From a virus (taxonomy: Duplodnaviria > Heunggongvirae > Uroviricota > Caudoviricetes): a stretch of 33,331 nucleotides of DNA. The notes beneath the pieces are model-generated. The model was not told the origin of the DNA. It searched no databases and worked only from the letters and a program-made list of their open reading frames with translations. Position 1 is the stretch's first letter. Each line of letters opens with the position of its first letter. The stretch lies in IMG/VR virus record IMGVR_UViG_2703718780_000026; one strand, 5' to 3'. Shown here piece after piece: positions 982 through 33,331 of this stretch. The position numbers were made by a program, and so were the translations under genes.

Positions 982-1050
982 AAGAAAGCCCTCTGACGCT
1001 GTATTCACCATCTTGGTAACAAATGGTGAAAATGTAATGTTTATAGAGTG

Positions 1051-3253: not shown

Positions 3254-3525
3254 GTATTCGTATCGAAATTGGCGAACGTTATGTCGTTACCAGTGACAGC
3301 TTTCAGTTTATTCTCCACGAGAAAAAGAGAGCGGAAAGCGGTAAAAACGCCGGTCAGGAATGGCTGGCGGTGGTTGGTTATTACCCGAAATTAAGCCAGC
3401 TCGTTTCCGGCCTGATGCATCACGATATTCTGACCGGAAGCGCAAAGTCTTTTGCTGATTTAAACGCGCAGGTTGAGCAACTCAGCAAGCGTTGTTCAGA
3501 GGCTTTTGGCTCATATGGCCGTTAA
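3250..3525 (+). CDS. Hypothetical early protein
   Basis: 91-aa ORF immediately upstream of A and overlapping its start. Confidence 0.55.
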   Translation: MSIRIEIGERYVVTSDSFQFILHEKKRAESGKNAGQEWLAVVGYYPKLSQLVSGLMHHDILTGSAKSFADLNAQVEQLSKRCSEAFGSYGR

Positions 3526-5800
3526 AGCCTCCGGGCGTTTTGTCCCTCCGTCAGCATTTGCCGCAGGCACCGGTAAGGCGTTTACCGGTGCTTATGCATG
3601 GAACGCGCCACGCGAGGCTGTCGGGCGCGAAAGACCCCTTACACGTGACGAGATGCGTCAGGTGCAAGGTGTTTTATCCACGATTAACCGCCTGCCTTAC
3701 TTTTTGCGCTCGCTGTTTACTTCACGCTATGACTACATCCGGCGCAATAAAAGCCCGGTGCACGGGTTTTATTTCCTTACATCCACTTTTCAGCGTCGTT
3801 TATGGCCGCGCATTGAGCGTGTGAATCAGCGCCATGAAATGAACACCGACGCGTCGTTGCTGTTTCTGGCAGAGCGTGACCATTATGCGCGCCTGCCTGG
3901 AATGAATGACAAGGAGCTGAAAAAGTTTGCCGCCCGTATCTCATCGCAGCTTTTCATGATGTATGAGGAACTCTGCGATGCATGGGTTGATGCTCATGGC
4001 GAAAAAGAATCGCTGTTTACGGATGAGGCGCAGACTCACCTGTATGGTCATGTTGCTGGCGCTGCACGTGCTTTCAATATTTCCCCGCTCTACTGGAAAA
4101 AATACCGTAAAGGGCAGATGACCACGAGGCAGGCATATTCTGCCATTGCCCGCCTGTTTAACGATGAGTGGTGGACTCATCAGCTTAAAGGCCAGCGTAT
4201 GCGCTGGCATGAGGCGTTACTGATTGCTGTCGGGGAGGTCAATAAAGACCGTTCTCCTTATGCCAGTAAACATGCCATTCGTGATGTGCGTGCGCGCCGC
4301 CAGGCAAATCTGGAATTTCTTAAATCGTGTGACCTTGAAAACAAGGAAACCGGCGAGCGCATCGACCTTATCAGTAAGGTGATGGGCAGTATTTCTAATC
4401 CAGAAATTCGCCGGATGGAGCTGATGAACACCATCGCCGGTATTGAGCGTTACGCCGCCGCAGAGGGTGATGTGGGGATGTTTATCACGCTGACCGCGCC
4501 GTCAAAGTATCACCCGACACGTCAGGTCAGAAAAGGCGAAAGTAAAACCGTCCAGCTAAATCACGGCTGGAACGATGAGGCATTTAATCCAAAGGATGCG
4601 CAGCGTTATCTCTGCCGTATCTGGAGCCTGATGCGCACGGCATTCAAGGATAATGATTTACAGGCCTACGGTTTGCGTGTTGTTGAACCACACCACGACG
4701 GAACGCCGCACTGGCATATGATGCTTTTTTGTAATCCACGCCAGCGTAACCAGATTATTGAAATCATGCGTCGCTATGCGCTCAAAGAGGATGGCGACGA
4801 AAGAGGAGCCGCGCGAAACCGTTTTCAGGCAAAACACCTTAACCGGGGCGGTGCTGCGGGATATATCGCGAAATACATCTCAAAAAACATCGACGGCTAT
4901 GCACTGGATGGTCAGCTCGATAATGATACCGGTAGGCTGCTGAAAGACACTGCAGCGGCTGTTACCGCATGGGCGTCTACGTGGCGCATTCCGCAATTTA
5001 AAACGGTTGGCCTGCCGACAATGGGGGCTTACCGTGAGCTACGCAAATTGCCTCGCGGCGTCAGCATTGCTGATGAGTTTGACGAACGCGTCGAGGCTGC
5101 ACGCGCCGCCGCAGACAGTGGTGATTTTGCGCTGTATATCAGCGCGCAGGGCGGGGCAAATGTCCCGCGCGATTGTCAGACTGTCAGGGTCGCCCGTAGC
5201 CCGTCGGATGACGTTAACGAGTACGAGGAAGAAGTCGAGAGAGTGGTCGGCATTTACGCGCCGCATCTCGGCGCGCGTCATATTCATATCACCAGAACGA
5301 CGGACTGGCGCATTGTGCCGAAAGTTCCGGTCGTTGAGCCTTTGACTTTAAAAAGCGGCATCGCCGCGCCTCGGAGTCCTGTCAATAACTGTGGAAAGCT
5401 CACCGGTAGTGATGCTTCGTTACCGGCTCCCACACCTTCTGAGCACGCTGCAGCAGTGCTAAATCTGGTTGATGACGGTGTTATCGAATGGAATGACCCA
5501 GAGGTCGTGAGGGCGCTCAGGGGAGCATTAAAACACGGTCTGAAAACACCAAATCGTCAGCAAAGAAACGGAAGTCCGTTAAAAACACATGAAATTGAAC
5601 CGTCGGCCAGACTGACCCGGTCGGAACGAATGCAAATCACCCGTATCCGCGTTGACCTTGCTCAGAACGGTATCAGGCCTCAGCGATGGGAGCTTGAGGC
5701 GCTGGCGCGTGGCGCGACCGTAAATTATGACGGGAAAAAATTCACGTATCCGGTCGCTGATGAGTGGCCGGGATTCTCAACAGTAATGGAGTGGACATAA
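3515..5800 (+). CDS. A: Replication initiation endonuclease A (rolling-circle, HUH-type)
   Basis: ATG at 3515 gives 761 aa, the same as P2 gpA. HUH-like motif PHWHMMLF and paired active-site tyrosines YIAKYISK, as in the phiX174 A / P2 A family. Confidence 0.9.
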   Translation: MAVKASGRFVPPSAFAAGTGKAFTGAYAWNAPREAVGRERPLTRDEMRQVQGVLSTINRLPYFLRSLFTSRYDYIRRNKSPVHGFYFLTSTFQRRLWPRIERVNQRHEMNTDASLLFLAERDHYARLPGMNDKELKKFAARISSQLFMMYEELCDAWVDAHGEKESLFTDEAQTHLYGHVAGAARAFNISPLYWKKYRKGQMTTRQAYSAIARLFNDEWWTHQLKGQRMRWHEALLIAVGEVNKDRSPYASKHAIRDVRARRQANLEFLKSCDLENKETGERIDLISKVMGSISNPEIRRMELMNTIAGIERYAAAEGDVGMFITLTAPSKYHPTRQVRKGESKTVQLNHGWNDEAFNPKDAQRYLCRIWSLMRTAFKDNDLQAYGLRVVEPHHDGTPHWHMMLFCNPRQRNQIIEIMRRYALKEDGDERGAARNRFQAKHLNRGGAAGYIAKYISKNIDGYALDGQLDNDTGRLLKDTAAAVTAWASTWRIPQFKTVGLPTMGAYRELRKLPRGVSIADEFDERVEAARAAADSGDFALYISAQGGANVPRDCQTVRVARSPSDDVNEYEEEVERVVGIYAPHLGARHIHITRTTDWRIVPKVPVVEPLTLKSGIAAPRSPVNNCGKLTGSDASLPAPTPSEHAAAVLNLVDDGVIEWNDPEVVRALRGALKHGLKTPNRQQRNGSPLKTHEIEPSARLTRSERMQITRIRVDLAQNGIRPQRWELEALARGATVNYDGKKFTYPVADEWPGFSTVMEWT

Positions 5801-6252
5801 TGGCAAAAATTCACGAGGTAAAGCTGCACGCAAAATATTTCGACCTTGTACTGGAAGGAAAGAAACGCGCAGAGTTTCGGAAAAATGACCGTAATTATGA
5901 GCGCGGGGACACGTTGATTTTGCATGAATGGGTGCAGGGTGTGTTTACGGGGCGCAAGGTTGAAGCCCGGATAACAGATGTTACTGACCTGTCAGACTGG
6001 CTGGAAGATTATGTCTTGCTAAGTATTGAGCTGCTTAATACGGGCGCATATAAGATTGTGAACTGGAAAGAACTTAGTGAACGTGGTTTGGTATTCAGAA
6101 TTAATCATGAAATTATGCATCAGCTTGGCCTTGCTGTTATGTATGAACCAGAGACAGGGATGTCTGGTGGTGCAATGGTTGCCACGGATGGGATATGGAA
6201 TTATTCAGATGAACAGATGGAGCATGCAAAGCAAAACGGGTGGCTTGGATAA
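5800..6252 (+). CDS. ASCH/DUF3850-like protein (tentative)
   Basis: ATG at 5800 overlaps the A stop (TAATG). N-terminus MAKIHEVKLHAKYFDLVLEGKKRAEFRKNDRNYERGDTLILHEW resembles the DUF3850/ASCH consensus as I remember it; needs an HMM check. Confidence 0.5.
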   Translation: MAKIHEVKLHAKYFDLVLEGKKRAEFRKNDRNYERGDTLILHEWVQGVFTGRKVEARITDVTDLSDWLEDYVLLSIELLNTGAYKIVNWKELSERGLVFRINHEIMHQLGLAVMYEPETGMSGGAMVATDGIWNYSDEQMEHAKQNGWLG

Positions 6253-6458
6253 TGCACAGAATACCAGGCGAGATACCGCACCATAAAACTAAAAATATCA
6301 AGCTGATGGCCATTGTTCAGCGTTTACAGCGGATTATGGTCAACGAAAATCTGACGCCCGATGAGCTGGTCGGGTGTGCCGAAATAGTCCGGGATAATTA
6401 CGGGCGGTTTAATCATATCGGTCAATCAAGAGTTACGCCACCACCACGCAGACGATAG
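6252..6458 (+). CDS. Small hypothetical protein
   Basis: ATG at 6252 overlaps the upstream stop (TAATG), suggesting translational coupling. 68 aa, no motif recognised. Confidence 0.4.
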   Translation: MHRIPGEIPHHKTKNIKLMAIVQRLQRIMVNENLTPDELVGCAEIVRDNYGRFNHIGQSRVTPPPRRR

Positions 6459-6763
6459 AGAACGCCGCCAGTCGTGAAACTTGTTTTCAGGGCTGGCGGG
6501 GTTGAACAACGAGCGAAGCGAGGCGTTAGTTATGTAAAGTTAAAGTCATTTAAAACAGTACATTAGTGGAAAGGATGTTGAGAGTATTCGGTTACGAGAG
6601 GGAATGGATGTATTTACAGAAATTGTTGGATTAATTGTAGTAAAGCTAGGCTAGGATAAGGCCTTAGGGCTGGATGTGGGGAGCATTCTTGTTGTTTGCT
6701 AAAACGCTCGAGATTTTTGAAGGATACAGTTATACTCTGTCGGAGGATGAATCGGAGACTAAA

Positions 6764-7801
6764 ATGGCGGTAAAAGTTGTTGATCTTTTTTGTGGTGCTG
6801 GCGGGCTTACTCATGGCTTAAAGCAAGCCGGATTAGATGTAGTCGCTGGTATTGATATAGAGAGTGCATGCCGGGTTGCTTATGAAATTAATAACAGTGC
6901 GCTTTTTATTGAAAAAGATATTTCTCTGGTGACCAAAGACGAGCTTAACGATCTTTTTGAAGGTGCGCAGGTAAGGGTGTTGGCTGGTTGTGCGCCGTGC
7001 CAACCTTTTTCAAGGTATACGCAAGGGCGCGATAAGAAAAATGATAAAAAGTGGCCTCTTCTTTATGAATTTGAACGTTTAATTCGAGGGGTTAATCCAG
7101 AGATCGTTACAATGGAAAATGTACCTGATGTAACGAAGCATTCTGTTTATAGTGACTTCTATAATAGTTTAGAGGCATTGGGTTATCATGTCTGGGCCGG
7201 AAAGGTTGAATGTGTAGATTATGGTGTTCCGCAAAATAGAGTTAGGCATGTATTATTGGCATCTAAATTTGCGCCGCTTTCATTTGTAAAACCAAAAGTA
7301 GAAAAGGCGGTGACGGTAAAAGAATGCATTGGCGGACTTCCTCCATTAAAGGCTGGTCAAACGGATCCTGTTGATCCTTTACATAAAGCAAGTAAATTAA
7401 GTGATATAAATCTAAAACGTATTGCTTGCTCTAAACCAGGAGGGACATGGCGAGACTGGCCAGTAGAGTTGATTGCATCATGCCACATAAAGAAAAGTGG
7501 GCAAGGTTATGCTAGTGTATATGGACGTATGGATTGGGATAAACCAAGTCCTACAATTACTACGCTATGTTATGGTTTTGGAAATGGCAGATTTGGTCAT
7601 CCCGAGCAAAATCGTGCAATTTCTCTGAGAGAGGCTGCATTGTTACAAACGTTTCCAAAGGATTACGTTTTTACTGCACCCAATGAGAAAGTATCTATAA
7701 AGAATGTTGGTAGGATGATTGGTAATGCTGTACCGGTAAAACTAGGTGAGGTTATAGGTGAGTCAATTATAACTCACCTAAAAGAGCACAATATAGTTTA
7801 A
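6764..7801 (+). CDS. DNA (cytosine-5) methyltransferase
   Basis: ATG at 6764 with GGAG RBS 6 nt upstream. C5-MTase motifs read in order: I DLFCGAGG, IV PCQPFS, VI ENV, VIII QNRVR, X GNAV. 345 aa. Confidence 0.9.
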   Translation: MAVKVVDLFCGAGGLTHGLKQAGLDVVAGIDIESACRVAYEINNSALFIEKDISLVTKDELNDLFEGAQVRVLAGCAPCQPFSRYTQGRDKKNDKKWPLLYEFERLIRGVNPEIVTMENVPDVTKHSVYSDFYNSLEALGYHVWAGKVECVDYGVPQNRVRHVLLASKFAPLSFVKPKVEKAVTVKECIGGLPPLKAGQTDPVDPLHKASKLSDINLKRIACSKPGGTWRDWPVELIASCHIKKSGQGYASVYGRMDWDKPSPTITTLCYGFGNGRFGHPEQNRAISLREAALLQTFPKDYVFTAPNEKVSIKNVGRMIGNAVPVKLGEVIGESIITHLKEHNIV

Positions 7802-8529
7802 GCCTGTAGTCTTGATGATCGTATGTATAAGCGATCATCAAGGTATTTTTGTATGTTTTCTAGTATTTCTTCTAGGTAATGGAAAACTTCATTTTTAAGA
7901 AGTTCAAGGTTGTCAATAGACGTTTCTTGACCCTTGTTTAAAAAGGATTCTGAACCATGCGCCAATGCATTTCTTGCTTTTTTTATGTTTACTAAATTTC
8001 CACCATTATGAGTTTTTGAACGATCTGTTTGAGAGGAAAAACCATAGATACTAGCAACATCCCTAATTTTCTGTGCGTCAACATTTCCAGAAAATAGGGG
8101 GTTTTTATCTGCTTGAACTTGTTTTTTGTGTTCCTCTAGCCATTTTTTTAGAACTAGTTTTGCTATATCACCTTGTGAAAAATCCATGTCACTCACCATA
8201 TGATGGTCTAATTTTTTTAAGGCAAGCTTTGTTAAGCTTTCGCAAATTTTATCGACACAAAGATCATCACACGAATTAAGTTCATTATGTATATCTTCAA
8301 TAGCATTAGATATAGTGGCTTCAATTAAGTTATATAATATAATAAACGCATTGGCTTTTAGGATATGCGTCATTTCGATATCAATTTCGCGGTGTTTACA
8401 TTCGCCTGCTATGCGATCTTTGTACGAGAATGTTGGTCTCTCATCAATAATGAATTTAACAAAATCAAAATATTTTTCTATATCTTCTTTTCTTTCAGAA
8501 AATAAAATTTTGCTGTTCATGATGACCAC
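7798..8529 (-). CDS. Hypothetical protein with C-terminal HEPN-like R-N-x3-H motif
   Basis: 243 aa from a GTG at 8529 (RBS GAGGAG 10 nt upstream), or 240 aa from the ATG at 8520. KKARNALAHG matches the HEPN Rx4-6H signature. Its stop codon overlaps the MTase stop (7798-7801 shared, convergent). Confidence 0.6.
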   Translation of the reverse strand: MVIMNSKILFSERKEDIEKYFDFVKFIIDERPTFSYKDRIAGECKHREIDIEMTHILKANAFIILYNLIEATISNAIEDIHNELNSCDDLCVDKICESLTKLALKKLDHHMVSDMDFSQGDIAKLVLKKWLEEHKKQVQADKNPLFSGNVDAQKIRDVASIYGFSSQTDRSKTHNGGNLVNIKKARNALAHGSESFLNKGQETSIDNLELLKNEVFHYLEEILENIQKYLDDRLYIRSSRLQA

Positions 8530-8535
8530 GGATAG

Positions 8536-9660
8536 TTACTCCTCACTATCATCTAGAACAGTATCTTCGGTCTGCACACCTAAAAGTTTGTCTCTTACAT
8601 ATTCAATACGTGCTTTTACTTTAGGTTTTGAATTTGATGCATCAGATCTTGTATGTTTAATAAACTCTTCTGAGTTTAACCATTCCTCTACCGGTGTTGG
8701 TATTATGTTAGAGTCAGTTTTTAAGGCCAAAGTGGAACCGACAGCTAACGCTTCAAAGCGAATTCTTGGTACAGTGTTTGCCGTTGCATTCTTTCTGAAA
8801 CCATAGGGGAAATATGTTTTGACAAATTCACACATATCTTGAAATTGTGCAGTTAGTTTTTCTTCTTGCTCAGGACTAAATGACTCATTGCGTTGGTCAA
8901 GATATTGGGTTAAGAAAGTATCAACACTTTTTTCAAAGTTAAGATAGTTATCACAATAGGCAAAATATCTAAGAACCAATTCTGGATATTCTCCACGACT
9001 GATCCTAGCATCGTTTAGAGGGCATATTTCCCTAAACAATGGAAACTCTGATAGTCTATTAACAACATCAAGAAAAGGCCCATCATTACTGCCCTGTCGT
9101 TGCTCCATTGTCGTGAGTTTTATTCCACCTGTATTCAATCGATCGAAAATCTCCCTTCTTGCTTCTTCATCACATAATTCAGTGAGTTCAATCATTCGAA
9201 TAGTTTTTCTATCGAATCTAAGCTTACGTGCAGGTGTGAAGTCAGAGTATTTGAATCCGTTGGCTGAAGTTAGCTTTTTTAATCCAGTAAGGGTAAATTT
9301 ATCATTTAGGAAATGATAAAGTGTTCTAATCCTCTGGCTACCATCAACGATTTCCAATCGCCCATCGTCATTTCCGATATCGGCGACAAATACATATGGG
9401 ATAGGAATATTTAGCAAAAGAGATTCAATGAATCTTGATTTTTGAACATTGCTCCAAACAAATTCCCTTTGATAATCAGGTATGTATAGTTCTGCTTGGT
9501 CGGTTTCTAATCCTTTCTGAAATTTGTCAACAATGACACTTACAGGAAACTCTCTGATTTGGTGATCCGTTATTTTTTGCATGGATTTGATCTGGTTATC
9601 CAGGTCAACTTTATCTTCTTCTGTGATCACTTGTTCAGGTTGTCTTGGGACTCTTGCCAT
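8536..9660 (-). CDS. DUF262 (ParB/Srx-like) domain protein, standalone (no DUF1524/HNH domain)
   Basis: ATG at 9660 with AGGAG RBS; 374 aa. Motifs IPDYQREFVW and DGSQRIRTL (the DGQQR-type signature) plus C-terminal FDRLNTGGIKLT. First gene of a two-gene operon, 6-nt gap to the downstream gene. Confidence 0.75.
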   Translation of the reverse strand: MARVPRQPEQVITEEDKVDLDNQIKSMQKITDHQIREFPVSVIVDKFQKGLETDQAELYIPDYQREFVWSNVQKSRFIESLLLNIPIPYVFVADIGNDDGRLEIVDGSQRIRTLYHFLNDKFTLTGLKKLTSANGFKYSDFTPARKLRFDRKTIRMIELTELCDEEARREIFDRLNTGGIKLTTMEQRQGSNDGPFLDVVNRLSEFPLFREICPLNDARISRGEYPELVLRYFAYCDNYLNFEKSVDTFLTQYLDQRNESFSPEQEEKLTAQFQDMCEFVKTYFPYGFRKNATANTVPRIRFEALAVGSTLALKTDSNIIPTPVEEWLNSEEFIKHTRSDASNSKPKVKARIEYVRDKLLGVQTEDTVLDDSEE

Positions 9661-9681
9661 TTGTTTTCTCCTTATGCTTAT

Positions 9682-9706
9682 TTGCAATAAGTTGCATTTG
9701 TTTGCA
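9682..9706 (-). promoter_or_regulatory. Three TTGCA motifs at 10-bp phasing in the leader of the DUF262 operon (candidate operator)
   Basis: TTGCA at 9682-9686, 9692-9696 and 9702-9706 on the + strand (TGCAA x3 on the coding strand), between the predicted promoter and the start codon. Confidence 0.3.
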
Positions 9707-9723
9707 TGCGTAGTTTTATACTG

Positions 9724-9752
9724 ATTTAATCCCACAAGTCCTTTACATGCAA
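9724..9752 (-). promoter_or_regulatory. Candidate sigma70 promoter for the DUF262/HEPN-like operon (TTGCAT, 17 nt, TTAAAT on the minus strand)
   Basis: Reverse complement of 9747-9752 is TTGCAT; reverse complement of 9724-9729 is TTAAAT; spacer 17 nt. About 60 nt upstream of the ATG at 9660. Confidence 0.35.
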
Positions 9753-9802
9753 GGGTTAGAGGCTTAAATGCACCTGCATTAAAACCGCCCCACGAAGCGG
9801 GC

Positions 9803-9821
9803 GGGCGAGGCGGGGAAAGCA
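9803..9821. other. cos cohesive-end site (P2/P4-type 19-mer GGCGAGGCGGGGAAAGCAC)
   Basis: The 19-mer matches the P2/P4 cohesive-end sequence as I recall it, and the following sequence (CTGCGCGCTG.CGGTGGTGCTGATT...TTTTTTCAGCGTCT) resembles the P4/P2 left end. Located between the cargo and Q, as expected for an integrated P2. Confidence 0.7.
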
Positions 9822-9964
9822 CTGCGCGCTGGCGGTGGTGCTGATTTTATTTTTTCAGCGTCTGAGCGCGTCGTGATAGCGTTTAGATTGTGCGCCGGGG
9901 CGTTGGTTTGTCTGCGGGCTGTTTTGCGCGGTGGTGAGCGTGTGAGGGCGTGATGACGGGGTGT

Positions 9965-9991: not shown

Positions 9992-11026
9992 TCAGCCGTT
10001 GTCAGTGTCCAGTGAGTAGTTTTTAAAGCGGATGACCTCCTGACCGAGCCAGCCGTTTATCTCGCGGATCCTGTCCTGTAACGGGATAAGCTCATTGCGG
10101 ACAAAGACCTTTGCCACTTTCTCAATATCACCCAGCGACCCGACGTTCTCCGGCTTGCCACCCATCAACTGAAAGGGGATGCGGTGTGCGTCCAGCAGGT
10201 CAGCGGCGCTGGCTTTTTTGATATTAAAAAAATCGTCCTTCGTCGCCACTTCACTGAGCGGGATAATTTTAATGCCGTCGGCTTTCCCCTGCGGGGCATA
10301 GAGAAACAGATTTTTAAAGTTATTGCGGCCTTTTGACTTAACCATGTTTTCGCGGAGCATTTCGATATCGTTGCGATCCTGCACGGCATCGGTGACGTAC
10401 ATGATGTATCCGGCATGTGCGCCATTTTCGTAATACTTGCGGCGGAACAGTGTGGCCGACTCATTCAGCCAGGCAGAGTTAAGGGCGCTGAGATATTCCG
10501 GCAGGCCGTACAGCTCCTGATTAATATCCGGCTCCAGCAGGTGAAACACGGAACCGGGCGCGAAGGCTGTCGGCTCGTTGAAGGACGGCACCCACCAGTA
10601 AACATCCTCTTCCACACCACGGCGGGTATATTTTGCCGGTGAGGTTTCCAGTCTGATGACCTTACCGGTGGTGCTGTAACGCTTTTCCAGAAACGCATTA
10701 CCGAACACCAGAAAATCCAGCACAAAGCGGCTGAAATCCTGCTGGGAAAGCCACGGATGCGGGATAAATGTCGAGGCCAGAATATTACGTTTGACGTAAA
10801 TCGGGGAGCTGTGATGCACGGCAGCACGCAGGCTTTTTGCCAGACCGGTAAAGCTGACCGGTGGCTCATACCATCTGCCGTTACTGATGCACTCGACGTA
10901 ATCCAGAATGTCACGGCGGTCGAGTACCGGCACCGGCTCACCAAAGGTGAATGCCTCCATTTTCGGGGCGCTGGCGGTCATTTTTTTTGCCGCAGGTTGC
11001 GGTGTTTTCCCTTTTTTCTTGCTCAT
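9992..11026 (-). CDS. Q: Portal protein (P2 gpQ-like)
   Basis: 344 aa, the same as P2 Q. Adjacent to cos and transcribed toward it; start overlaps the P stop. Confidence 0.88.
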   Translation of the reverse strand: MSKKKGKTPQPAAKKMTASAPKMEAFTFGEPVPVLDRRDILDYVECISNGRWYEPPVSFTGLAKSLRAAVHHSSPIYVKRNILASTFIPHPWLSQQDFSRFVLDFLVFGNAFLEKRYSTTGKVIRLETSPAKYTRRGVEEDVYWWVPSFNEPTAFAPGSVFHLLEPDINQELYGLPEYLSALNSAWLNESATLFRRKYYENGAHAGYIMYVTDAVQDRNDIEMLRENMVKSKGRNNFKNLFLYAPQGKADGIKIIPLSEVATKDDFFNIKKASAADLLDAHRIPFQLMGGKPENVGSLGDIEKVAKVFVRNELIPLQDRIREINGWLGQEVIRFKNYSLDTDNG

Positions 11027-12798
11027 CAGTAAAACTCCAGAATGGTGGATGTCAGCGGGGTGCTGATACCGGCGGTGAGTGGCTCATTTAACAGGGCGTG
11101 CATGGTCGCCCAGGCGAGGTCGGCGTGGCTGGCTTCCTCGCTGCGGCTGGCCTCATAGGTGGCGCTACGTCCGCTGCTGGTCATGGTCTTGCGGATAGCC
11201 ATAAACGAGCTGGTGATGTCGGTGGCGCTGACGTCATATTCCAGACAGCCACGACGGATAACGTCTTTTGCCTTGAGCACCATTGCGGTTTTCATTTCCG
11301 GCGTGTAGCGGATATCGCGCGCGGCGGGATAGAACGAGCGCACGAGCTGGAACACGCCGACACCGAGGCCGGTGGCATCAATACCGATGTATTCGACGTT
11401 GTATTTTTCGGTGAGTTTGCGGATGGATTCAGCCTGAGTGGCAAAGTCCATGCCTTTCCACTGGTGACGCTCAAGTATTCTGAATTTGCCACCGGCCACC
11501 ACCGGCGGTGCCAGCACCACGCATCCGGCGCTGTCGCCACGGTGTGACGGGTCGTAACCAATCCATACCGGGCGGGAGCCGAACGGATTGGCGGCAAACG
11601 GTGCATAGTCTTCCCATTCTTCCAGCGTGTCCACCATGCAGCGTTGCAGCTCCTCGAACGGGAACACCGATGCCTTGTCGTCAACAAATTCACACATGAA
11701 CAGGTTTTTAAAATCGTCGGCGCTGTTTTCGCGTTTGAGCTGCTCAATGTCGAACAGCGTGCAGCCGCCTTTCAGGGCGTCCTCAATGGTGACAATCTGC
11801 CGCCACTGGCCGTCCGCACAGAGAAGCCCACCGGCAAGGGCGTTATGACTGACGTCGATTTCCACGCGTTCGGCGGCGCTGGCGCGTCCCCGGTTAAACA
11901 GTTCACCCGACCAGAACGGGTAGGCGTCGTGCGCCAGCGTGGACGGGGTGGAGAAATAGGTCGAGCGCAGGTGACTCTGTGAGGCCATACCTGATGCCAC
12001 CTTACGCAGTACCTGAAAATTCGGGATCCAGAAAATCTCGTCGACGTACAGGTCGCCGTTATGGCTCTGTGCGGTGTTGGAGTTGGTGCCGAGAAAAATC
12101 AGTTTTGCACCGTTATTGCCCAGGACAATCGGGTCACCGGTCAGGTCAACGTCAACCAGACGGGCAAAGGCGATGATGTATTCGCGGAACACATACGCCT
12201 GCGTTTTACTGGCCGACAGAAAAATCTGGTTATGACCGGTTTTCAGGGCACGCAGCAGCGCCTCGCGGGAAAAATAAAACGTCGCGCCAATCTGGCGGGA
12301 TTTCAGGATATCGCGGATGCGGTGCTCAAGCCCGGCGCGATACCAGTGCAACTGATAGTCGAAAGACTGCTCAAAGAAAATCTGCTCCAGCTTTTCGATA
12401 GCCTCGTCACTGAAAAAATTCTTTTTCGGTTTGCGCCGCCCGCCTTTGTTGCGGTTAGCGACGTTCGGATTAAGGTCTGCCTCGTTGCCGGTCTGGCTGT
12501 AGCGATTTACCCGTGCCAGTCGTTCAATCTGGCGTCCCAGCAGGTCAATTTCCTTGAAGTCACCACCGGTTTTCTGCGGTTTGATGATGAGCTGGGTCAG
12601 CCGCGCTTCCAGGCTCATTTCGACACGGCTGATGGGGGCAACGCTGTCCCAGCCGTCGCGCTGTTTCCAGCTCTGCACCGTCGGGCGTTTCATCTGCAAC
12701 ATGGCGGCAATCTGCGGCACGGAAAATCCCTGCCAGTACAGCAGCGCCGCCTGACGACGCGGGTCGTGTAAAAGAGTGGTGTCTGTGGTGATGGTCAT
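11026..12798 (-). CDS. P: Terminase large (ATPase) subunit (P2 gpP-like)
   Basis: ATG at 12798 (MTITTDTTLL...) with GAGGT RBS; 590 aa, the same as P2 P. The tracker's start at 12828 is a TTG. Confidence 0.88.
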   Translation of the reverse strand: MTITTDTTLLHDPRRQAALLYWQGFSVPQIAAMLQMKRPTVQSWKQRDGWDSVAPISRVEMSLEARLTQLIIKPQKTGGDFKEIDLLGRQIERLARVNRYSQTGNEADLNPNVANRNKGGRRKPKKNFFSDEAIEKLEQIFFEQSFDYQLHWYRAGLEHRIRDILKSRQIGATFYFSREALLRALKTGHNQIFLSASKTQAYVFREYIIAFARLVDVDLTGDPIVLGNNGAKLIFLGTNSNTAQSHNGDLYVDEIFWIPNFQVLRKVASGMASQSHLRSTYFSTPSTLAHDAYPFWSGELFNRGRASAAERVEIDVSHNALAGGLLCADGQWRQIVTIEDALKGGCTLFDIEQLKRENSADDFKNLFMCEFVDDKASVFPFEELQRCMVDTLEEWEDYAPFAANPFGSRPVWIGYDPSHRGDSAGCVVLAPPVVAGGKFRILERHQWKGMDFATQAESIRKLTEKYNVEYIGIDATGLGVGVFQLVRSFYPAARDIRYTPEMKTAMVLKAKDVIRRGCLEYDVSATDITSSFMAIRKTMTSSGRSATYEASRSEEASHADLAWATMHALLNEPLTAGISTPLTSTILEFY

Positions 12799-12971
12799 GA
12801 ATACCTCGCCGTGATGAATACACGGCAAGGCTACTGAGTCGCGCCCCGCGATTCGCTAAGGTGCTGTTGTGTCAGTGATAAGCCATCCGGGACTGATGGC
12901 GGAGGATGCGCATCGTCGGGAAACTGATGCCGACATGTGACTCCTCTAATCACTATTCAGGACTCCTGACA

Positions 12972-21664: not shown

Positions 21665-23914
21665 ATGAGCACAAAATTCAGAACCGTTATCACCACTGCC
21701 GGTGCAGCAAAGCTGGCAGCGGCAACCGCACCGGGAGGGCGGAAGGTCAACATTACCACGATGGCCGTCGGGGATGGCGGTGGTAAATTGCCTGTCCCGG
21801 ATGCCGGACAGACCGGGCTTATCCACGAAGTCTGGCGACATGCGCTGAACAAAATCAGCCAGGACAAACGAAACAGTAATTATATTATCGCAGAGCTGGT
21901 TATTCCGCCGGAGGTGGGCGGTTTCTGGATGCGTGAACTTGGCCTGTACGATGATGCGGGAACGCTAATTGCCGTGGCGAACATGGCCGAAAGTTATAAG
22001 CCAGCCCTTGCCGAAGGCTCAGGGCGTTCGCAGACCTGCCGCATGGTCATCATCGTCAGCAGTGTGGCCTCAGTGGATCTGACCATTGACACCACAACGG
22101 TGATGGCGACGCAGGATTACGTTGATGACAAAATTGCAGAGCATGAACAGTCACGACGTCACCCGGACGCTTCTTTGACCGCAAAAGGTTTTACTCAGTT
22201 AAGCAGTGCGACCAACAGCACGTCTGAAACACTCGCCGCAACACCAAAAGCGGTAAAAGCAGCATATGACCTTGCTAACGGGAAATACACTGCACAGGAC
22301 GCCACCACAGCGCGAAAAGGCCTTGTCCAGCTCAGTAGTGCCACCAACAGCACGTCTGAAACGCTCGCCGCAACACCAAAAGCGGTAAAAGCAGCATATG
22401 ACCTTGCTAACGGGAAATACACTGCACAGGATGCCACCACCGCGCGAAAAGGCCTTGTCCAGCTCAGTAGCGCCACCAACAGCGATTCTGAAACGCTTGC
22501 GGCAACGCCAAAGGCGGTAAAGGCAGCGTATGACCTTGCTAACGGGAAATACACTGCACAGGATGCCACCACGGCGCGGAAAGGCCTTGTCCAGCTCAGT
22601 AGCGCCACCAACAGTGATTCTGAAACGCTGGCCGCAACACCAAAAGCGGTGAAGTCTGCCTATGACAATGCTGAAAAACGTCTTCAGAAAGATCAGAACG
22701 GTGCGGATATTCCTGATAAAGGACGCTTCCTGAGTAACATTAATGTTTACAGCAAAGGTGAAGTGGATAAGAAAAAGGGAATGCGAAAGTATTCGTTTGC
22801 AGCCCCTGCAAATGTCGTTGCCGGGAAGTGGTATCCCGTTATCTTTCGCCGTGCTGCCAGCCTTTCAGGAGAAATGGCATCCCGCGTCGTTATTTCCACT
22901 GGTTGTTATAACAGCGATTATGTAATGAATAACTGTGAGTTTAATGGCATGGTTATGCCCGGAGGCTGGACTGATCGTGGTTCTTATGCGGCAGGTTATT
23001 TCTGGACGTATCAGACTAATGAGCGTTCAATCCATTCCATTGTTACAAGCCTGAAAGATGATGATGTATGTAGTGTTTTTTATGTTGAAGCCAGAGCTTT
23101 TCCCGTACAAATTCTTGCAGAGGAAGGGCTAACGGTTATTGTTCCGACAGAGGATTATGTCGTCGGTCAAACGACATATAAGTGGGGGGCAACTAATCCC
23201 GCTACAGAAAGCACGAACGCACAGGCTATTCTGGATTTTAAAAATGGACGTGGTTATTACTGTTCACATCCATTTATTTCCAGCCTTTCAGGAAATGCTG
23301 CAACAGCAACGAAGTTAGCGAACGCAAGAAATATTAATGGTGTCAGATTTGATGGCTCTGCCGATATAAATATTAATACACTGGTATCCAGAAACCGTGT
23401 TACTGCATTAGGTGGGAGCGTAAAGGGGACACCAGGTATTCAGATGTATGAGGCATACAACAATGGCTACCCAACAGCCTATGGTAATGTGCTTCATCTC
23501 ACTGGTGTAACCGCAGTAGGAGAGGGTGAGTTACTTATTGGCTGGAGTGGAACCAGCGGTGCTCATGCTCCGGCATATATTCGCTCCCGACGAGATACCA
23601 CAGATGCTAACTGGTCTGGATGGGCGCAACTATATACAACTGCTCATAAACCCTCAGCGGGAGATGTTGGTGCATACACCAAAGCTGAGTCAGATTCACG
23701 TTATGTGAGAGACATGCGGCTGGGCGGTGCATCTACATATAAACCAGCAAATAATGGTACTACATGGACGCATCAGGCTCCGTCAGGTTGCGTATATACC
23801 GGCATTATTGTTCAGGATACCGGCTCAAACTCTGCCGATAACATTGGTGGCGTATATTACAGACCGGTGCAGAAATACATTAACGGGACATGGTATAACG
23901 TGGCGCAGGTATAA
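21665..23914 (+). CDS. H: Tail fibre protein H, with expanded internal repeats and a divergent C-terminal domain
   Basis: 749 aa (P2 H is 669 aa, from memory). N-terminal region is baseplate-proximal and conserved-looking; central 44-aa repeats; the distal part is AT-richer by eye. Confidence 0.85.
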   Translation: MSTKFRTVITTAGAAKLAAATAPGGRKVNITTMAVGDGGGKLPVPDAGQTGLIHEVWRHALNKISQDKRNSNYIIAELVIPPEVGGFWMRELGLYDDAGTLIAVANMAESYKPALAEGSGRSQTCRMVIIVSSVASVDLTIDTTTVMATQDYVDDKIAEHEQSRRHPDASLTAKGFTQLSSATNSTSETLAATPKAVKAAYDLANGKYTAQDATTARKGLVQLSSATNSTSETLAATPKAVKAAYDLANGKYTAQDATTARKGLVQLSSATNSDSETLAATPKAVKAAYDLANGKYTAQDATTARKGLVQLSSATNSDSETLAATPKAVKSAYDNAEKRLQKDQNGADIPDKGRFLSNINVYSKGEVDKKKGMRKYSFAAPANVVAGKWYPVIFRRAASLSGEMASRVVISTGCYNSDYVMNNCEFNGMVMPGGWTDRGSYAAGYFWTYQTNERSIHSIVTSLKDDDVCSVFYVEARAFPVQILAEEGLTVIVPTEDYVVGQTTYKWGATNPATESTNAQAILDFKNGRGYYCSHPFISSLSGNAATATKLANARNINGVRFDGSADININTLVSRNRVTALGGSVKGTPGIQMYEAYNNGYPTAYGNVLHLTGVTAVGEGELLIGWSGTSGAHAPAYIRSRRDTTDANWSGWAQLYTTAHKPSAGDVGAYTKAESDSRYVRDMRLGGASTYKPANNGTTWTHQAPSGCVYTGIIVQDTGSNSADNIGGVYYRPVQKYINGTWYNVAQV
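22196..22665 (+). repeat. In-frame 132-bp tandem repeat (about 3.5 copies) within H, encoding a 44-aa phage tail-fibre repeat
   Basis: ACCAACAG anchor recurs at 22211, 22343, 22475 and 22607 (period 132). Protein unit SSATNS(T/D)SETLAATPKAVKAAYDLANGKYTAQDATTARKGLVQL. Copies 1-2 carry ACGTCT and copies 3-4 GATTCT (an AABB pattern). Confidence 0.85.
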
Positions 23915-23917
23915 TTT

Positions 23918-24445
23918 ATGCAGCATTTGATAAATATAACGGCAGGTAATCCAAAAACGGTTGAACAATATCAATTGACAAAGGACTTTGATGTTGTCTG
24001 GTTTTTTTCAGAAGATGGTAAGAACTGGTACGAAGAACAAAAGTATTTTGCTGATGACACGATAAAAATAGCGTACGACAAAGATAATATTATCCGCTAT
24101 GTGGAAAAGGATGTGACAGCTATCAGACCAGATGGATTAAGTGTTGTTGAAGTGCCGGATATTACTGCTAATCGACGGGCGGACATTTCAGGGAACTGGA
24201 TGTTTAAGGATGGTACAGTGATTAAACGAATTTATACGGCAGAGGAATTGCAGCAGCAGGCAGAAAATCGGAAAGCCAGACTTCTTGCAGATGCTGAATC
24301 CGTGATTTTGCCGCTGGAGCGCGCGGTCAGACTGAACATGGCAACAGATGAGGAGCGTAGCCGACTGGAAGCATGGGAACGCTACAGCGTTCTGGTCAGT
24401 CGTGTGGATCCTGCAAATCCTGAATGGCCGGAAATGCCGCAATAA
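23918..24445 (+). CDS. G: Tail fibre assembly chaperone G
   Basis: 175 aa, the same as P2 G; immediately follows H. Confidence 0.8.
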
Positions 24446-24666
24446 GTTGTATGATCTCTGGAGTGAGCAAACGTATCTATGGCACAGAGTAAAGCCTAAT
24501 CTGACAGGCCGCTCTGTGTCTGGAGTAGATTTTAGTAAAGCATTATTTTATTAGTGCAAATTCTAATCAATACATTTTATGTATATGATATCCTGCAGAC
24601 TTTAATGACTTGGTTTAGGCTAACCAGATAACACTGAAGGAATATTTTTGATAATTAAGGTACGGT

Positions 24667-25260
24667 ATGTTTACTAAGCGACGATTAAAAAATATTAACT
24701 GGGAGGCAAGTTCAGTGATTCTTGCTATGGTTCTCTTTGTTGGAAATATATTTTATACAAATCATCGTGATGATATAAGCATGGAGGCTGAGAGGGACAG
24801 TATCAGAACAATGTTTGCATATGAAATCGCTAATAACCATCGCGCTCTCACTTTTCTTGATAAAACGAGACATATTGGCTTTGACGAAAATTCGGAGCAT
24901 TTTGTTGGCGAGCCTTTTGCCATTAATGTCAAATCATTAGGGGGGCCTCGCTTACAGATTGCATTAAACCAGACTGATAAAGTGTTTAAATCCTACTTCA
25001 GCGAATTAAGTAAGCTTGATAAAGAGGATGTTACTCTTCTTATGGACTATTACCATGAGCAAAGCATCCTGCTGGAGCGTGTAAAATCTACGTTACAGAA
25101 GATGAAAAGTGGTAATGATATTAAAGTTGATATTGATGGTTACTTATTAGAAGAACACTTCATGAATGAGCTTAATCTTTCTAATATTTTGCTTAAACGC
25201 TATAGCCATTTGTTGTCACAATACGCTAAAGAACATAAAACAAAAGATTTACATAATTGA
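24667..25260 (+). CDS. Hypothetical membrane-anchored protein (cargo at the Z/fun position)
   Basis: 197 aa; ATG with AAGG RBS; N-terminal hydrophobic helix SSVILAMVLFVGNIFY; strongly AT-rich codon usage unlike the flanking phage genes; sits alone between G and FI. Confidence 0.6.
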   Translation: MFTKRRLKNINWEASSVILAMVLFVGNIFYTNHRDDISMEAERDSIRTMFAYEIANNHRALTFLDKTRHIGFDENSEHFVGEPFAINVKSLGGPRLQIALNQTDKVFKSYFSELSKLDKEDVTLLMDYYHEQSILLERVKSTLQKMKSGNDIKVDIDGYLLEEHFMNELNLSNILLKRYSHLLSQYAKEHKTKDLHN

Positions 25261-25590
25261 TAATCTGCTAATGGTTATTCATGGGGTAACTATGTTTTAT
25301 ATGTAATCCAACTCAGATGAATTATTGATTCTGGATAATAACCGCAGAGCGGCATATACCCTGACAGGCAAATGTCCGCTTCTTGTTCAAAGCAGACTGT
25401 CAGATTTGATAACTTTTGGGCTATGTAAATTGTCAGTCGGAAAATGAGTGAGTTCAAATCAGGACTGGCGGGCGAATTGCCCGCATTTTCTTTATCTGTT
25501 GTTTCATCCACTGACCAGACAGGTCAAATAGCGTCTCATGCTCTGCACAACAGAAAATACCACTCACCCATTAACCACGGAGTTAGACGG

Positions 25591-26781
25591 ATGAGTGACT
25601 ATCATCACGGCGTGCAGGTGCTGGAGATTAACGACGGCACCCGCGTCATTTCCACTGTATCCACTGCCATTGTCGGCATGGTCTGCACGGCCAGCGATGC
25701 GGATGCGGAAACCTTCCCCCTCAATAAACCGGTGCTGATTACCAATGTGCAGAGCGCAATTGCAAAGGCCGGTAAAAAAGGCACGCTGGCGGCATCGTTG
25801 CAGGCCATCGCTGACCAGTCAAAACCGGTCACCGTTGTCGTGCGTGTTGAAGACGGCACCGGCGACGACGAAGAAACGAAACTCGCGCAGACCGTTTCCA
25901 ATATCATCGGCACCACTGACGAAAACGGTCAGTACACCGGACTGAAAGCCCTGATGGGGGCTGAGTCGGTTACCGGCGTTAAACCGCGCATTCTCGGCGT
26001 ACCGGGACTGGACACCAAAGAGGTCGCCGTCGCACTGGCATCGGTATGCCAGGAACTGAATGCCTTCGGGTATATCAGCGCATGGGGTTGTAAAACCATT
26101 TCCGAGGTGAAAGCCTACCGCCAGAATTTCAGCCAGCGTGAGCTGATGGTTATCTGGCCGGATTTCCTCGCATGGGATACGGTTACCAGTACCACCGCCA
26201 CCGCGTATGCCACCGCCCGTGCGCTGGGTCTGCGCGCTAAAATCGACCAGGAGCAGGGCTGGCATAAAACGCTGTCCAACGTCGGGGTGAACGGTGTTAC
26301 CGGCATCAGTGCATCCGTCTTCTGGGATTTGCAGAAGCCAGGCACTGATGCTGACCTGCTGAACGAGGCAGGCGTCACAACGCTGGTTCGCCGCGACGGT
26401 TTCCGTTTCTGGGGTAACCGTACCTGCTCTGATGACCCGCTGTTCCTCTTTGAAAGCTACACACGCACCGCGCAGGTACTGGCCGACACGATGGCTGAGG
26501 CGCACATGTGGGCTATTGATAAGCCCATCACCGCAACGCTGATTCGCGACATCATTGACGGCATCAATGCCAAATTCCGTGAACTGAAAAACAACGGTTA
26601 TATCGTGGATGGCACATGCTGGTTCAGCGAAGAATCCAACGATGCGGAAACCCTCAAGGCCGGAAAACTGTATATCGACTACGACTATACCCCGGTGCCT
26701 CCTCTCGAAAACCTGACCCTGCGCCAGCGTATTACTTCCAGATACTTGGCAAGTCTGGTCACTTCGGTTAACAGCAATTAA
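25591..26781 (+). CDS. FI: Tail sheath protein FI
   Basis: ATG at 25591 with GGAG RBS gives 396 aa, the same as P2 FI. The tracker's N-terminal extension from 25444 is rejected. Confidence 0.88.
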   Translation: MSDYHHGVQVLEINDGTRVISTVSTAIVGMVCTASDADAETFPLNKPVLITNVQSAIAKAGKKGTLAASLQAIADQSKPVTVVVRVEDGTGDDEETKLAQTVSNIIGTTDENGQYTGLKALMGAESVTGVKPRILGVPGLDTKEVAVALASVCQELNAFGYISAWGCKTISEVKAYRQNFSQRELMVIWPDFLAWDTVTSTTATAYATARALGLRAKIDQEQGWHKTLSNVGVNGVTGISASVFWDLQKPGTDADLLNEAGVTTLVRRDGFRFWGNRTCSDDPLFLFESYTRTAQVLADTMAEAHMWAIDKPITATLIRDIIDGINAKFRELKNNGYIVDGTCWFSEESNDAETLKAGKLYIDYDYTPVPPLENLTLRQRITSRYLASLVTSVNSN

Positions 26782-31893: not shown

Positions 31894-31974
31894 TGTTTTT
31901 ATTTTATCTATTTGTTTTATAAGGATAAATTAACTAAAATGGCACTATCAACAAAACCGGAAGAGGTGCTCGCG

Positions 31975-32193
31975 ATGTTTCATTGTCCTTTATGCCAGCA
32001 TGCCGCACATGCGCGTACAAGCCGCTATATCACTGACACGACAAAAGAGCGTTATCACCAGTGTCAGAACGTGAATTGCAGCGCCACGTTCATCACTTAT
32101 GAGTCGGTACAGCGATACATCGTGAAGCCGGGAGAAGTCCACGCCGTAAGGCCGCACCCGTTACCATCAGGACAGCAAATTATGTGGATGTGA
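31975..32193 (+). CDS. ogr: Late-gene transcription activator Ogr (C4 zinc finger)
   Basis: ATG at 31975 gives 72 aa (MFHCPLCQHAAHARTSRYITDTTKERYHQCQNVNC...), which matches P2 Ogr as I recall it, with CxxC...CxxxxC. Last phage gene before the host junction. Confidence 0.85.
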   Translation: MFHCPLCQHAAHARTSRYITDTTKERYHQCQNVNCSATFITYESVQRYIVKPGEVHAVRPHPLPSGQQIMWM

Positions 32194-32347: not shown

Positions 32348-32428
32348 ATCCTCAATTTGCCTGCTGCTTAATGCATTGCAGATGATTTGCTTCCGTTATA
32401 CTAGCGTCAGTTGATAGCGGGAGTATTT

Positions 32429-33331
32429 ATGAATCAATCTTATGGACGGCTGGTCAGTCGGGCGGCGATTGCTGCGACGGCGATGGCTTCGTTGCTATTG
32501 CTGATTAAAATTTTTGCATGGTGGTATACCGGGTCGGTGAGTATTCTCGCCGCGCTGGTGGATTCGCTGGTGGATATCGGCGCGTCGTTGACGAATTTAC
32601 TGGTGGTGCGATATTCCCTGCAACCTGCCGACGATAATCACTCGTTTGGTCACGGTAAAGCAGAGTCCCTCGCGGCGCTGGCGCAAAGTATGTTTATCTC
32701 CGGTTCGGCACTATTCCTGTTTTTGACGGGTATTCAACATCTGATATCTCCAACACCGATGACAGATCCAGGCGTCGGGGTTATCGTGACAATTGTGGCG
32801 CTAATTTGTACGATTATCCTTGTCTCGTTTCAGCGTTGGGTGGTGCGCCGGACGCAAAGCCAGGCGGTGCGGGCTGATATGCTACATTACCAGTCTGATG
32901 TTATGATGAACGGCGCAATTCTGCTGGCGCTGGGGTTGTCCTGGTACGGCTGGCATCGCGCCGATGCTCTGTTTGCATTGGGAATCGGCATCTATATTTT
33001 ATATAGCGCGTTACGCATGGGATATGAGGCGGTACAGTCATTACTGGATCGCGCATTGCCTGATGAGGAACGGCAAGAAATTATTGATATCGTGACTTCC
33101 TGGCCGGGTGTTAGCGGCGCTCACGATCTTCGCACGCGGCAGTCAGGGCCGACCCGCTTTATTCAGATTCATTTGGAAATGGAAGACTCTCTGCCTTTGG
33201 TTCAGGCACATATGGTGGCGGATCAGGTAGAGCAGGCTATTTTACGGCGTTTTCCGGGATCGGATGTAATTATCCATCAGGACCCCTGTTCCGTCGTACC
33301 CAGGGAGGGTAAACGGTCTATGCTTTCATAA
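32429..33331 (+). CDS. fieF: Cation diffusion facilitator family ferrous-iron/zinc efflux transporter FieF (YiiP)
   Basis: 300 aa starting [51 protein letters not shown], which matches enterobacterial FieF as I recall it; CDF motifs and multiple TM segments. The tracker's start at 32411 is a TTG extension. Confidence 0.9.

Follow-up and report, generated by a model that had tools for sequence, protein, structure and literature searches.

Small membrane-anchored proteins that block the entry of phage DNA are encoded by single, dispensable cargo genes of several phages and prophages, including the lactococcal Sie2009 type, HK97 gp15, T4 Imm and Sp, and P22 SieA. They are short, with N-terminal membrane helices and a site of action in the inner membrane or periplasm. 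Proteins of the Sie2009 type have approximately 160-190 amino acids and an N-in/C-out membrane anchor. In phage P2, the slot between the late genes G and FI holds fun(Z) (NP_046777), the T5-exclusion and 5-fluorodeoxyuridine (FUdR)-sensitivity gene of this phage, and the cloned gene blocks T5 (P2 reference record). The G-FI slot represents the second P2 defence hotspot, where three systems have been obtained by functional selection in addition to fun (Vassallo et al. 2022, PMC9519451). Here we describe ORF197, an open reading frame (ORF) of 197 codons located in the G-FI slot of the P2-like prophage IMGVR_UViG_2703718780_000026, which was analysed as a DNA stretch of 33,331 nucleotides (hereafter the window). 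In our best reading, to which we assign a probability of roughly 35%, the ORF197 product may be a single-component exclusion factor acting at the level of the cell envelope.

ORF197 (24667-25260, plus strand) lies between the end of G at 24445 and the start of FI at 25591, starts with ATG preceded 6 nt upstream by the ribosome-binding site AAGG, and is assigned to PHROG 3829 as a bitopic membrane protein. Its description in the sequence-only reading of the window as a single cargo gene in the Z/fun slot is supported by the P2 reference genome, which has fun(Z) at the same place. Both ORF197 and fun(Z) are non-essential cargo of the G-FI slot, and both are followed by the same right 24-bp palindrome and pF backbone, which are discussed below. 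However, Fun(Z) is a protein of 528 amino acids encoded on the opposite strand, whereas ORF197 is a membrane-anchored helical protein of 197 amino acids. A common origin of the two proteins was considered and rejected (best BLASTP E = 3.3). The PD systems of Vassallo et al. (PMC9519451) come from the same hotspot and, like ORF197, are compact and often annotated as hypothetical proteins. In contrast to ORF197, which is known here from its sequence and shows no meaningful match to any PADLOC v2 model, they have a demonstrated phenotype.

With its 197 amino acids, single membrane helix and occurrence as dispensable cargo absent from most P2-like phages, ORF197 resembles the small exclusion proteins in architecture, but shares no sequence relationship with Sie2009, gp15, Imm, Sp or SieA. 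Of the exclusion families Imm, Sp, SieA/SieB, gp15, Cor/Llp and Sie2009, none was matched in the PHROGs database by ORF197 (E ≤ 10) or by 25 relatives (E ≤ 0.1), and Pfam and NCBIfam likewise gave no match to them.

Sequence comparisons revealed that ORF197 is a real gene under strong purifying selection. The nonsynonymous divergence (dN) between ORF197 and the copies from Salmonella, Pantoea, Kosakonia and other sources is close to 0.2 with saturated synonymous divergence (dS), and dN/dS ranges from 0.06 to 0.15 in those comparisons with copies from other genera where it could be computed. Among the alleles within E. coli, the ratio of nonsynonymous to synonymous polymorphism (pN/pS) is 0.36-0.73, based on 2-5 synonymous changes. 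Diversifying selection within this species was considered and set aside, as a ratio based on so few synonymous changes is uninformative. In the records of the phages AC1 and SIDE7 (L017 and L016; 2549-3094 in both), the gene is given a 181-amino-acid product starting from an internal Met, which cuts off half of the membrane helix. The start giving 197 amino acids is favoured because residues 10-21, in the N-terminal INWEASSVILAM segment, are conserved throughout the family.

ORF197 is AT-rich, with 35% GC and a GC content at third codon positions (GC3) of 0.33 in a window of 51% GC overall, and a GC content of 30-42% was found in all copies of the family compared. The sharp contrast in codon composition described for both sides of the gene holds against FI (GC3 0.66) and, further downstream, FII (GC3 0.69), but not against G (44% GC, GC3 0.41). 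Thus, the sharp compositional step is on the FI side alone.

The ORF197 protein matches PHROG 3829, a family with no assigned function, over its full length (E 7e-137, residues 1-197 of a 197-position profile), and the same profile was matched by all 25 members of our family alignment, down to 19% sequence identity. This family is very small, comprising 38 clusters at 90% identity and 28 representatives at 50% identity among 1.84 billion proteins, and all of its named members are from Enterobacterales. The cluster containing ORF197 also includes fragments of 99 amino acids. A degenerate-pattern scan of GTDB returned two loci, the 25-member alignment being too divergent to serve as a seed. An alignment of 21 close members shows 45 invariant columns, and across all 25 members Arg47, Asn57 and Leu117 are invariant, whereas Ser16, Ala51, Glu53, Ile54 and Tyr129 are nearly so.

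In line with the earlier view that the soluble part of the protein has no recognisable motifs, neither Pfam nor NCBIfam nor PADLOC showed a meaningful match for any of the 25 family members scanned (ORF197 and 24 relatives), and sequence profiles of the Protein Data Bank (PDB) revealed no relative of the family. In PADLOC-DB v2.0.0, no hidden Markov model of a defence protein was matched by ORF197 at E ≤ 10, and the 25 relatives gave just four isolated single-member matches (E 0.004-0.013). No homology of ORF197 to a known phage morphogenetic or housekeeping protein turned up in the profile and structure searches.

A hydrophobic segment at approximately residues 12-31 (nt 24700-24759; Kyte-Doolittle values of 1.5-1.8) corresponds to the single N-terminal membrane helix proposed previously, and the same residues are helical in the AlphaFold model. 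A first AlphaFold run based on close homologues alone gave a mean predicted local distance difference test score (pLDDT) of 61 and was discarded; a second run with twelve distant members added to the alignment produced a model with pLDDT 83 and a predicted template-modelling score (pTM) of 0.72. In this model, a continuous helix spans residues 12-66, with the membrane segment running on as the first helix of a predicted four-helix bundle (approximately residues 32-185), and further helices are present at residues 92-100, 105-116, 119-148 and 151-178. A Foldseek search with the model against PDB and BFVD returned nothing below E = 0.07, so the fold itself carries little functional information. 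Generic fold similarity is all that ORF197 has in common with the four-helix bundles of chemoreceptors and sensor kinases (Tar/Tsr, PcaY, PilJ; TarH/4HB_MCP_1), as it shows no Pfam match to these domains and has one membrane helix rather than two.

The short N-terminal flank of the membrane helix is basic, with a net positive charge in every full-length member and 7-8 Lys/Arg residues in distant ones, while the 15 residues following the helix are neutral or acidic in most family members. According to the positive-inside rule, this distribution of charges makes a moderately strong case for a cytoplasmic N-terminus and a periplasmic location of the predicted bundle. Three distant members have C-terminal tails with Cys-x-x-x-x-Cys pairs, and in another member such a pair (Cys82 and Cys87) lies within the bundle region; these pairs are compatible with periplasmic disulfides.

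Screening of 5,426 complete E. coli genomes identified ORF197 in 203 of them, with all copies at least 96.6% identical and all located in the G-FI slot, showing that homologues do sit at this position in other P2-like prophages. The gene is carried by about 17% of the 1,197 slot-bearing E. coli genomes and fills about 12% of 1,715 G-FI slots. In 201 of the 203 carriers at least 80% of ORF197 is covered in one place; in NZ_CP090319.1 the slot match is split by an IS1 transposase, and in NZ_CP141736.1 the best match covers 66% of ORF197, with matches in two places of the record. The 13 phage records with ORF197 are all assigned to Peduovirus. Near-identical copies were found beside tail-fibre (H) C-termini that are just 28-59% identical to each other and beside two types of G, and these differences between the H C-termini argue that ORF197 is not tied to the receptor specificity of its own phage. 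Masking of the phage's own receptor, as by Cor/Llp-type proteins, was rejected as a function of ORF197 on the same grounds.

Outside E. coli, the homologues are always solitary and have no conserved partner gene. In P4-like satellites of Pantoea and Kosakonia, the homologue directly follows the primase gene, and the region between primase and the attachment site (att) of P4 is a minor defence hotspot containing 7% of P4 defence systems (PMC13586616). In Salmonella, the homologue is located between the tail end of a lambdoid prophage and fieF, with a complete type II methylase-endonuclease pair immediately downstream of it, and in Proteus it lies beside putAbiC and HD-domain proteins. Other homologues were found beside a 1,524-amino-acid protein with an LmuA-like N-terminus, near a VapC toxin-antitoxin pair on an IncFII plasmid, together with ArdA in the leading region of a plasmid or integrative and conjugative element (ICE), and after the CbeA/CbtA end of a CP4-type island.

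Based on these results, we propose that ORF197 would be produced in the lysogen from its AT-rich upstream region and, during lytic growth, possibly also by read-through from the late V-G operon, with the conserved hairpin upstream of pF as the end point. Acting in the envelope as a single-component superinfection-exclusion factor, the protein would interfere with the genome entry of certain heterologous phages in the periplasm or at the inner membrane, and may do so through binding to ejection or tape-measure proteins of these phages or to an inner-membrane component which they need. This reading is suggested by the autonomy of the gene, the membrane anchor and the predicted periplasmic domain, by the repeated finding of solitary homologues with restriction or abortive-infection (Abi) gene neighbours in hotspots of phages, satellites and islands, and by the architectural parallel with the known small exclusion proteins. 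A domain in the periplasm could meet incoming tail and ejection proteins or inner-membrane components, rather than the cues of cytoplasmic replication.

Several observations weigh against an exclusion factor. The predicted topology has the positive-inside rule as its sole basis, and the charge bias is small in the closest relatives of ORF197. Promoter support for the gene is weak, with a sigma-70-like site that is no better than chance. PADLOC v2, which we take to include the systems recovered by a fosmid selection from 71 strains against T4, lambda-vir and T7, contains no model for the ORF197 family, which is therefore not among the fosmid-recovered systems, although these strains may or may not carry the gene. 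The G-FI slot also holds cargo other than defence genes, including tail-fibre modules and invertases (10.1101/2024.10.15.618418). Finally, Rousset et al. (2022) isolated four P2-like phages, of which AC1 (95% identical) and SIDE7 (98.5% identical) have a copy of ORF197. In that study, lysogens of E. coli C were exposed to a panel of eight phages, namely lambda, T4, P1, 186cIts, CLB_P2, LF82_P8, AL505_P2 and T7 (T5-like phages being outside the panel), only the AC1 lysogen was reported to be protective (against lambda and LF82_P8), and a TIR system cloned from its A-Q hotspot reproduced the protection. These indirect lysogen data slightly weaken the proposed role by counting against a broad or strong effect of ORF197 on those eight phages. 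If ORF197 is an exclusion factor, none of lambda, T4, T7, P1, 186 and the remaining three panel phages is a probable target.

The hotspot location and the gene neighbourhood lend the same support to an abortive-infection effector, which would oligomerise through its membrane helix and respond to a phage-dependent cue by depolarising or permeabilising the inner membrane, so that the infected cell dies before progeny can be released. Membrane proteins are common as suicide effectors in defence systems (PMC9122126), and the conserved polar residues Ser16 and Asn27 are located inside the membrane helix of ORF197. However, known membrane effectors are usually paired with a cytoplasmic sensor, whereas the ORF197 homologues never have a partner gene, and the bulk of the protein is predicted to be periplasmic, far from the cues of phage replication. 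The negative results reported for the AC1 and SIDE7 lysogens apply here as well, and we regard this mechanism as unlikely.

A periplasm-facing domain on a membrane anchor, as predicted for ORF197, may also serve lysogenic conversion of a non-antiviral kind. In this case, the protein would be either an orphan immunity factor directed at a bacteriocin or type VI effector with periplasmic action, or a tethered bundle of the 'sensor-domain-only' kind modulating a host chemoreceptor or sensor kinase. One homologue is located a few kb from an Rhs/WHH toxin-immunity array, but no cognate toxin is consistently close by; another adjoins a gene for a Tar-like chemoreceptor, but the fold matches are generic and Pfam shows no TarH or 4HB_MCP match. 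That the AC1 and SIDE7 lysogens of Rousset et al. (2022) reportedly showed no anti-phage phenotype attributable to ORF197 would fit such a role. So would the NCBI family name 'lysogenic conversion protein', which is a label rather than a sign of tested function and appears to have been propagated from records of the P2-EC Z-region. The presence of the family in phage and satellite hotspots with restriction-modification and Abi neighbours points more to conflict between viruses, and we consider lysogenic conversion of this kind a doubtful alternative.

An accessory role in phage morphogenesis or lysis, as a tail-fibre-related or lysis-timing factor, is very improbable. In favour of it, the gene follows H and G and shares the orientation of the late tail genes, the stretch from G to ORF197 lacks any terminator-like site, and single family members show weak matches to holin families (E 0.01-0.06). 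However, these matches are insignificant, P2 and most P2-like phages lack ORF197, homologues are found on plasmids, satellites and islands without tail or lysis genes, and no link to the type of tail fibre was observed. The rest of the probability is reserved for functions outside these four readings.

The flanks of ORF197 are 221 bp and 330 bp long, in agreement with the lengths given earlier, but they are not simple non-coding cargo DNA, as much of them is conserved P2 backbone. Alignment to P2 and to P2-EC46 (AJ512680) showed that the conserved backbone extends to approximately position 24518 and resumes at approximately 25374, accounting for about 75 bp of the left flank and about 215 bp of the right flank. 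Judged from this alignment, the true cargo is about 0.86-0.89 kb in length and bounded by 24-bp palindromes. These palindromes have the arms GTCCGCT/AGCGGAC and a 10-nt spacer, and occur as left (L) and right (R) types in inverted orientation. The consensus L element is GTCCGCTnTGTGCCAAGAGCGGAC, and the R element is approximately its reverse complement, GTCCGCTCCTCGCTCAAAGCAGAC. In the window, the right palindrome GTCCGCTTCTTGTTCAAAGCAGAC (25374-25397) is of the R type and matches the pattern with one mismatch, and the same R element forms the right cargo boundary in P2, P2-EC46 and the contigs L010, L011, L052 and L053. The left palindrome GGCCGCTCTGTGTCTGGAGTAGAT (24508-24531) is an eroded L-type element which does not fold into a hairpin, but aligns with the intact L elements of P2-EC46, the Pantoea island L010 and the plasmid L011.

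The ORF197 cargo has both features of a palindrome-bounded cassette, namely inverted elements at its ends and unrelated DNA outside them. In a clade with 69% identity, the gene belongs to a 948-bp cassette whose two elements keep identical positions across three unrelated settings: the Pantoea island L010 (4785/5709), the chemoreceptor-adjacent contig L052 (4785/5709) and the plasmid- or ICE-type leading region L053 (approximately 4785/5709). The same cassette, shortened by an internal deletion, is present on the Enterobacter IncFII plasmid L011 with both elements retained (4784/5606). The DNA outside both elements is unrelated across L010, L011, L052 and L053. P2-EC46 (L001) contains three elements (92, 1611 and approximately 3170), which separate two annotated ORFs.

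These elements are associated with other cargos as well. The exact L element was found in 34 IMG/VR contigs, in which the elements form arrays of the type [L...R][L...R] with approximately 18 nt between back-to-back elements. Besides the G-FI slot, such arrays occupy the A-Q hotspot of divergent P2-like phages and sites near D of 186-like phages, and they are also present in contigs without P2 genes, including one with lambdoid-type early genes (for example, the array at 6164-11574 of L018). One and the same cargo was observed behind the same element both in P2 and in non-P2 surroundings. The palindrome-bounded cassette is the more unusual aspect of this locus, ORF197 itself being ordinary hotspot cargo of an uncharacterised family. 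In the cassette array of the lambdoid-type contig, an R-type palindrome is directly followed by a gene for a 202-amino-acid tyrosine recombinase (L018 9378-9983; also in L034, L038 and L041), which consists of the catalytic domain only (Phage_integrase, E 2e-17). This protein was rejected as a general partner of the palindromes, as it is confined to one repeated element. For the palindromes as a whole, the analysis yielded no assignable recombinase.

All P2-like phages with ORF197 that were examined share the same erosion of the L element. Together with the high identity of the 203 E. coli copies and their common location, this pattern fits a single capture of ORF197 followed by its spread through homologous recombination among P2-like phages. 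The P2-EC46 Z-region record AJ512680 already annotates 'left/right inverted repeats', and the title of Nilsson et al. 2004 reportedly mentions site-specific recombination, so the palindromic repeats are not new in outline. Searches of the literature under the phage names and the palindrome sequence yielded no relevant paper.

Between G and the left palindrome, the P2 backbone (24446-24507) is near-identical to the left flank of P2-EC46 and ends in AATCTGACAG, the outer part of an inverted repeat that spans the slot (24498-24516/25388-25406). Beyond the left palindrome lies the AT-rich leader of the cassette (24532-24666, plus strand). A block of this leader at approximately 24561-24600 is conserved with the Pantoea-type cassettes, and it is followed by a weak sigma-70-like site (24628-24655) and the AAGG ribosome-binding site (24658-24661). 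A scan with the promoter consensus found 2 sites compared to 4.0 ± 2.1 expected by chance. Expression of ORF197 in the lysogen would need a promoter within this 135-bp leader, while the terminator scan detected no terminator-like site between G and ORF197, making read-through from the late V-G operon possible. The non-coding cassette DNA downstream of ORF197 (25261-25373, plus strand) is absent from P2 and P2-EC46 and partly common to the Pantoea and Enterobacter cassettes.

On the right side, the P2 backbone upstream of FI (25398-25590, plus strand) contains the hairpin and pF signals. The terminator scan and folding revealed a terminator-like hairpin, GCGGGC-GAATT-GCCCGC, with a T run (25468-25484), and coordinates transferred by alignment from the annotation of P2 (NC_001895) place the Ogr-activator site of pF at approximately 25497-25522 and its transcription start at approximately 25565-25567. 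Rfam showed no non-coding RNA in the flanks of ORF197. Like a moron, ORF197 is inserted between genes that are otherwise adjacent or differently filled in relatives and has a deviant base composition; as for a promoter and terminator of its own, the sigma-70-like site is weak and at chance level, and the nearest terminator-like hairpin belongs to the conserved backbone.

The window covers an entire P2-like prophage and, after it, host DNA. The prophage includes the integrase gene (1-1011, minus strand), the replication gene A (about 3473-5800), genes Q and P for portal and terminase (9992-12828, minus strand), and the late tail-fibre gene H (21665-23914). In H, Pfam matched Phage_fiber_2 in four stretches, and near-identical tandem repeats of approximately 132 bp (44 amino acids) are present at 22150-22650, where spurious 40-amino-acid ORFs recur every 132 nt in another frame. 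The conserved borders of the G-FI slot are formed on the left by the tail-fibre assembly gene G (23918-24445, plus strand; Caudo_TAP, E 1.2e-34), whose product is 75% identical to P2 G, and on the right by the tail sheath gene FI (25591-26781, plus strand; Phage_sheath_1, Phage_sheath_1C and Gp18_domIII_N). Downstream of FI are FII, E, T, U and D, and then a gene for an Ogr-type zinc finger (31912-32193).

The prophage adjoins the host cation-efflux gene fieF, which starts at 32411 (window 32411-33331). In Salmonella (L005 9502-10404), the homologue of ORF197 and its type II restriction-modification pair are also located directly upstream of fieF-pfkA, indicating that one chromosomal neighbourhood gathers different mobile DNA with the same gene family. 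The A-Q hotspot of the window prophage (5764-9822) contains four genes, which encode an ASCH/DUF3850-DUF7415 protein (5764-6252), a Dcm-type C5 cytosine methylase (6674-7801), a HEPN protein (7798-8529, minus strand) and a GmrSD_N/DUF262 protein (8536-9822, minus strand) with matches to the PADLOC models NsnA (E 3e-55) and PD-T4-2_A (E 7e-34). From these matches, the A-Q cargo looks like a PD-T4-2-like two-gene system plus a methylase.

ORF197 is thus a gene that is common in E. coli, mostly intact and never studied. Should its product prove to be an exclusion factor, the envelope-level defences of Enterobacterales would gain a new family encoded by a single gene, with a bearing on host-range prediction for therapeutic phages. 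In a wider and speculative view, which we hold to be improbable as a whole, the family would represent new single-component periplasm-facing exclusion proteins of Gram-negative bacteria with targets outside the usual panels (for example, T5-like phages, which Fun(Z) excludes from the same slot, or other P2/P4-type elements), spreading as a cassette of approximately 0.9 kb whose 24-bp palindromic ends would be substrates of a putative recombination system. Such a system would exchange defence cargo among P2 hotspots, lambdoid prophages, plasmids and islands. Recent surveys record the turnover of hotspot cargo without giving a mechanism, and the 24-bp palindromes, which delimit ORF197 as well as other cargos, offer a handle on rapid cargo swapping at the defence hotspots of phages and their satellites.

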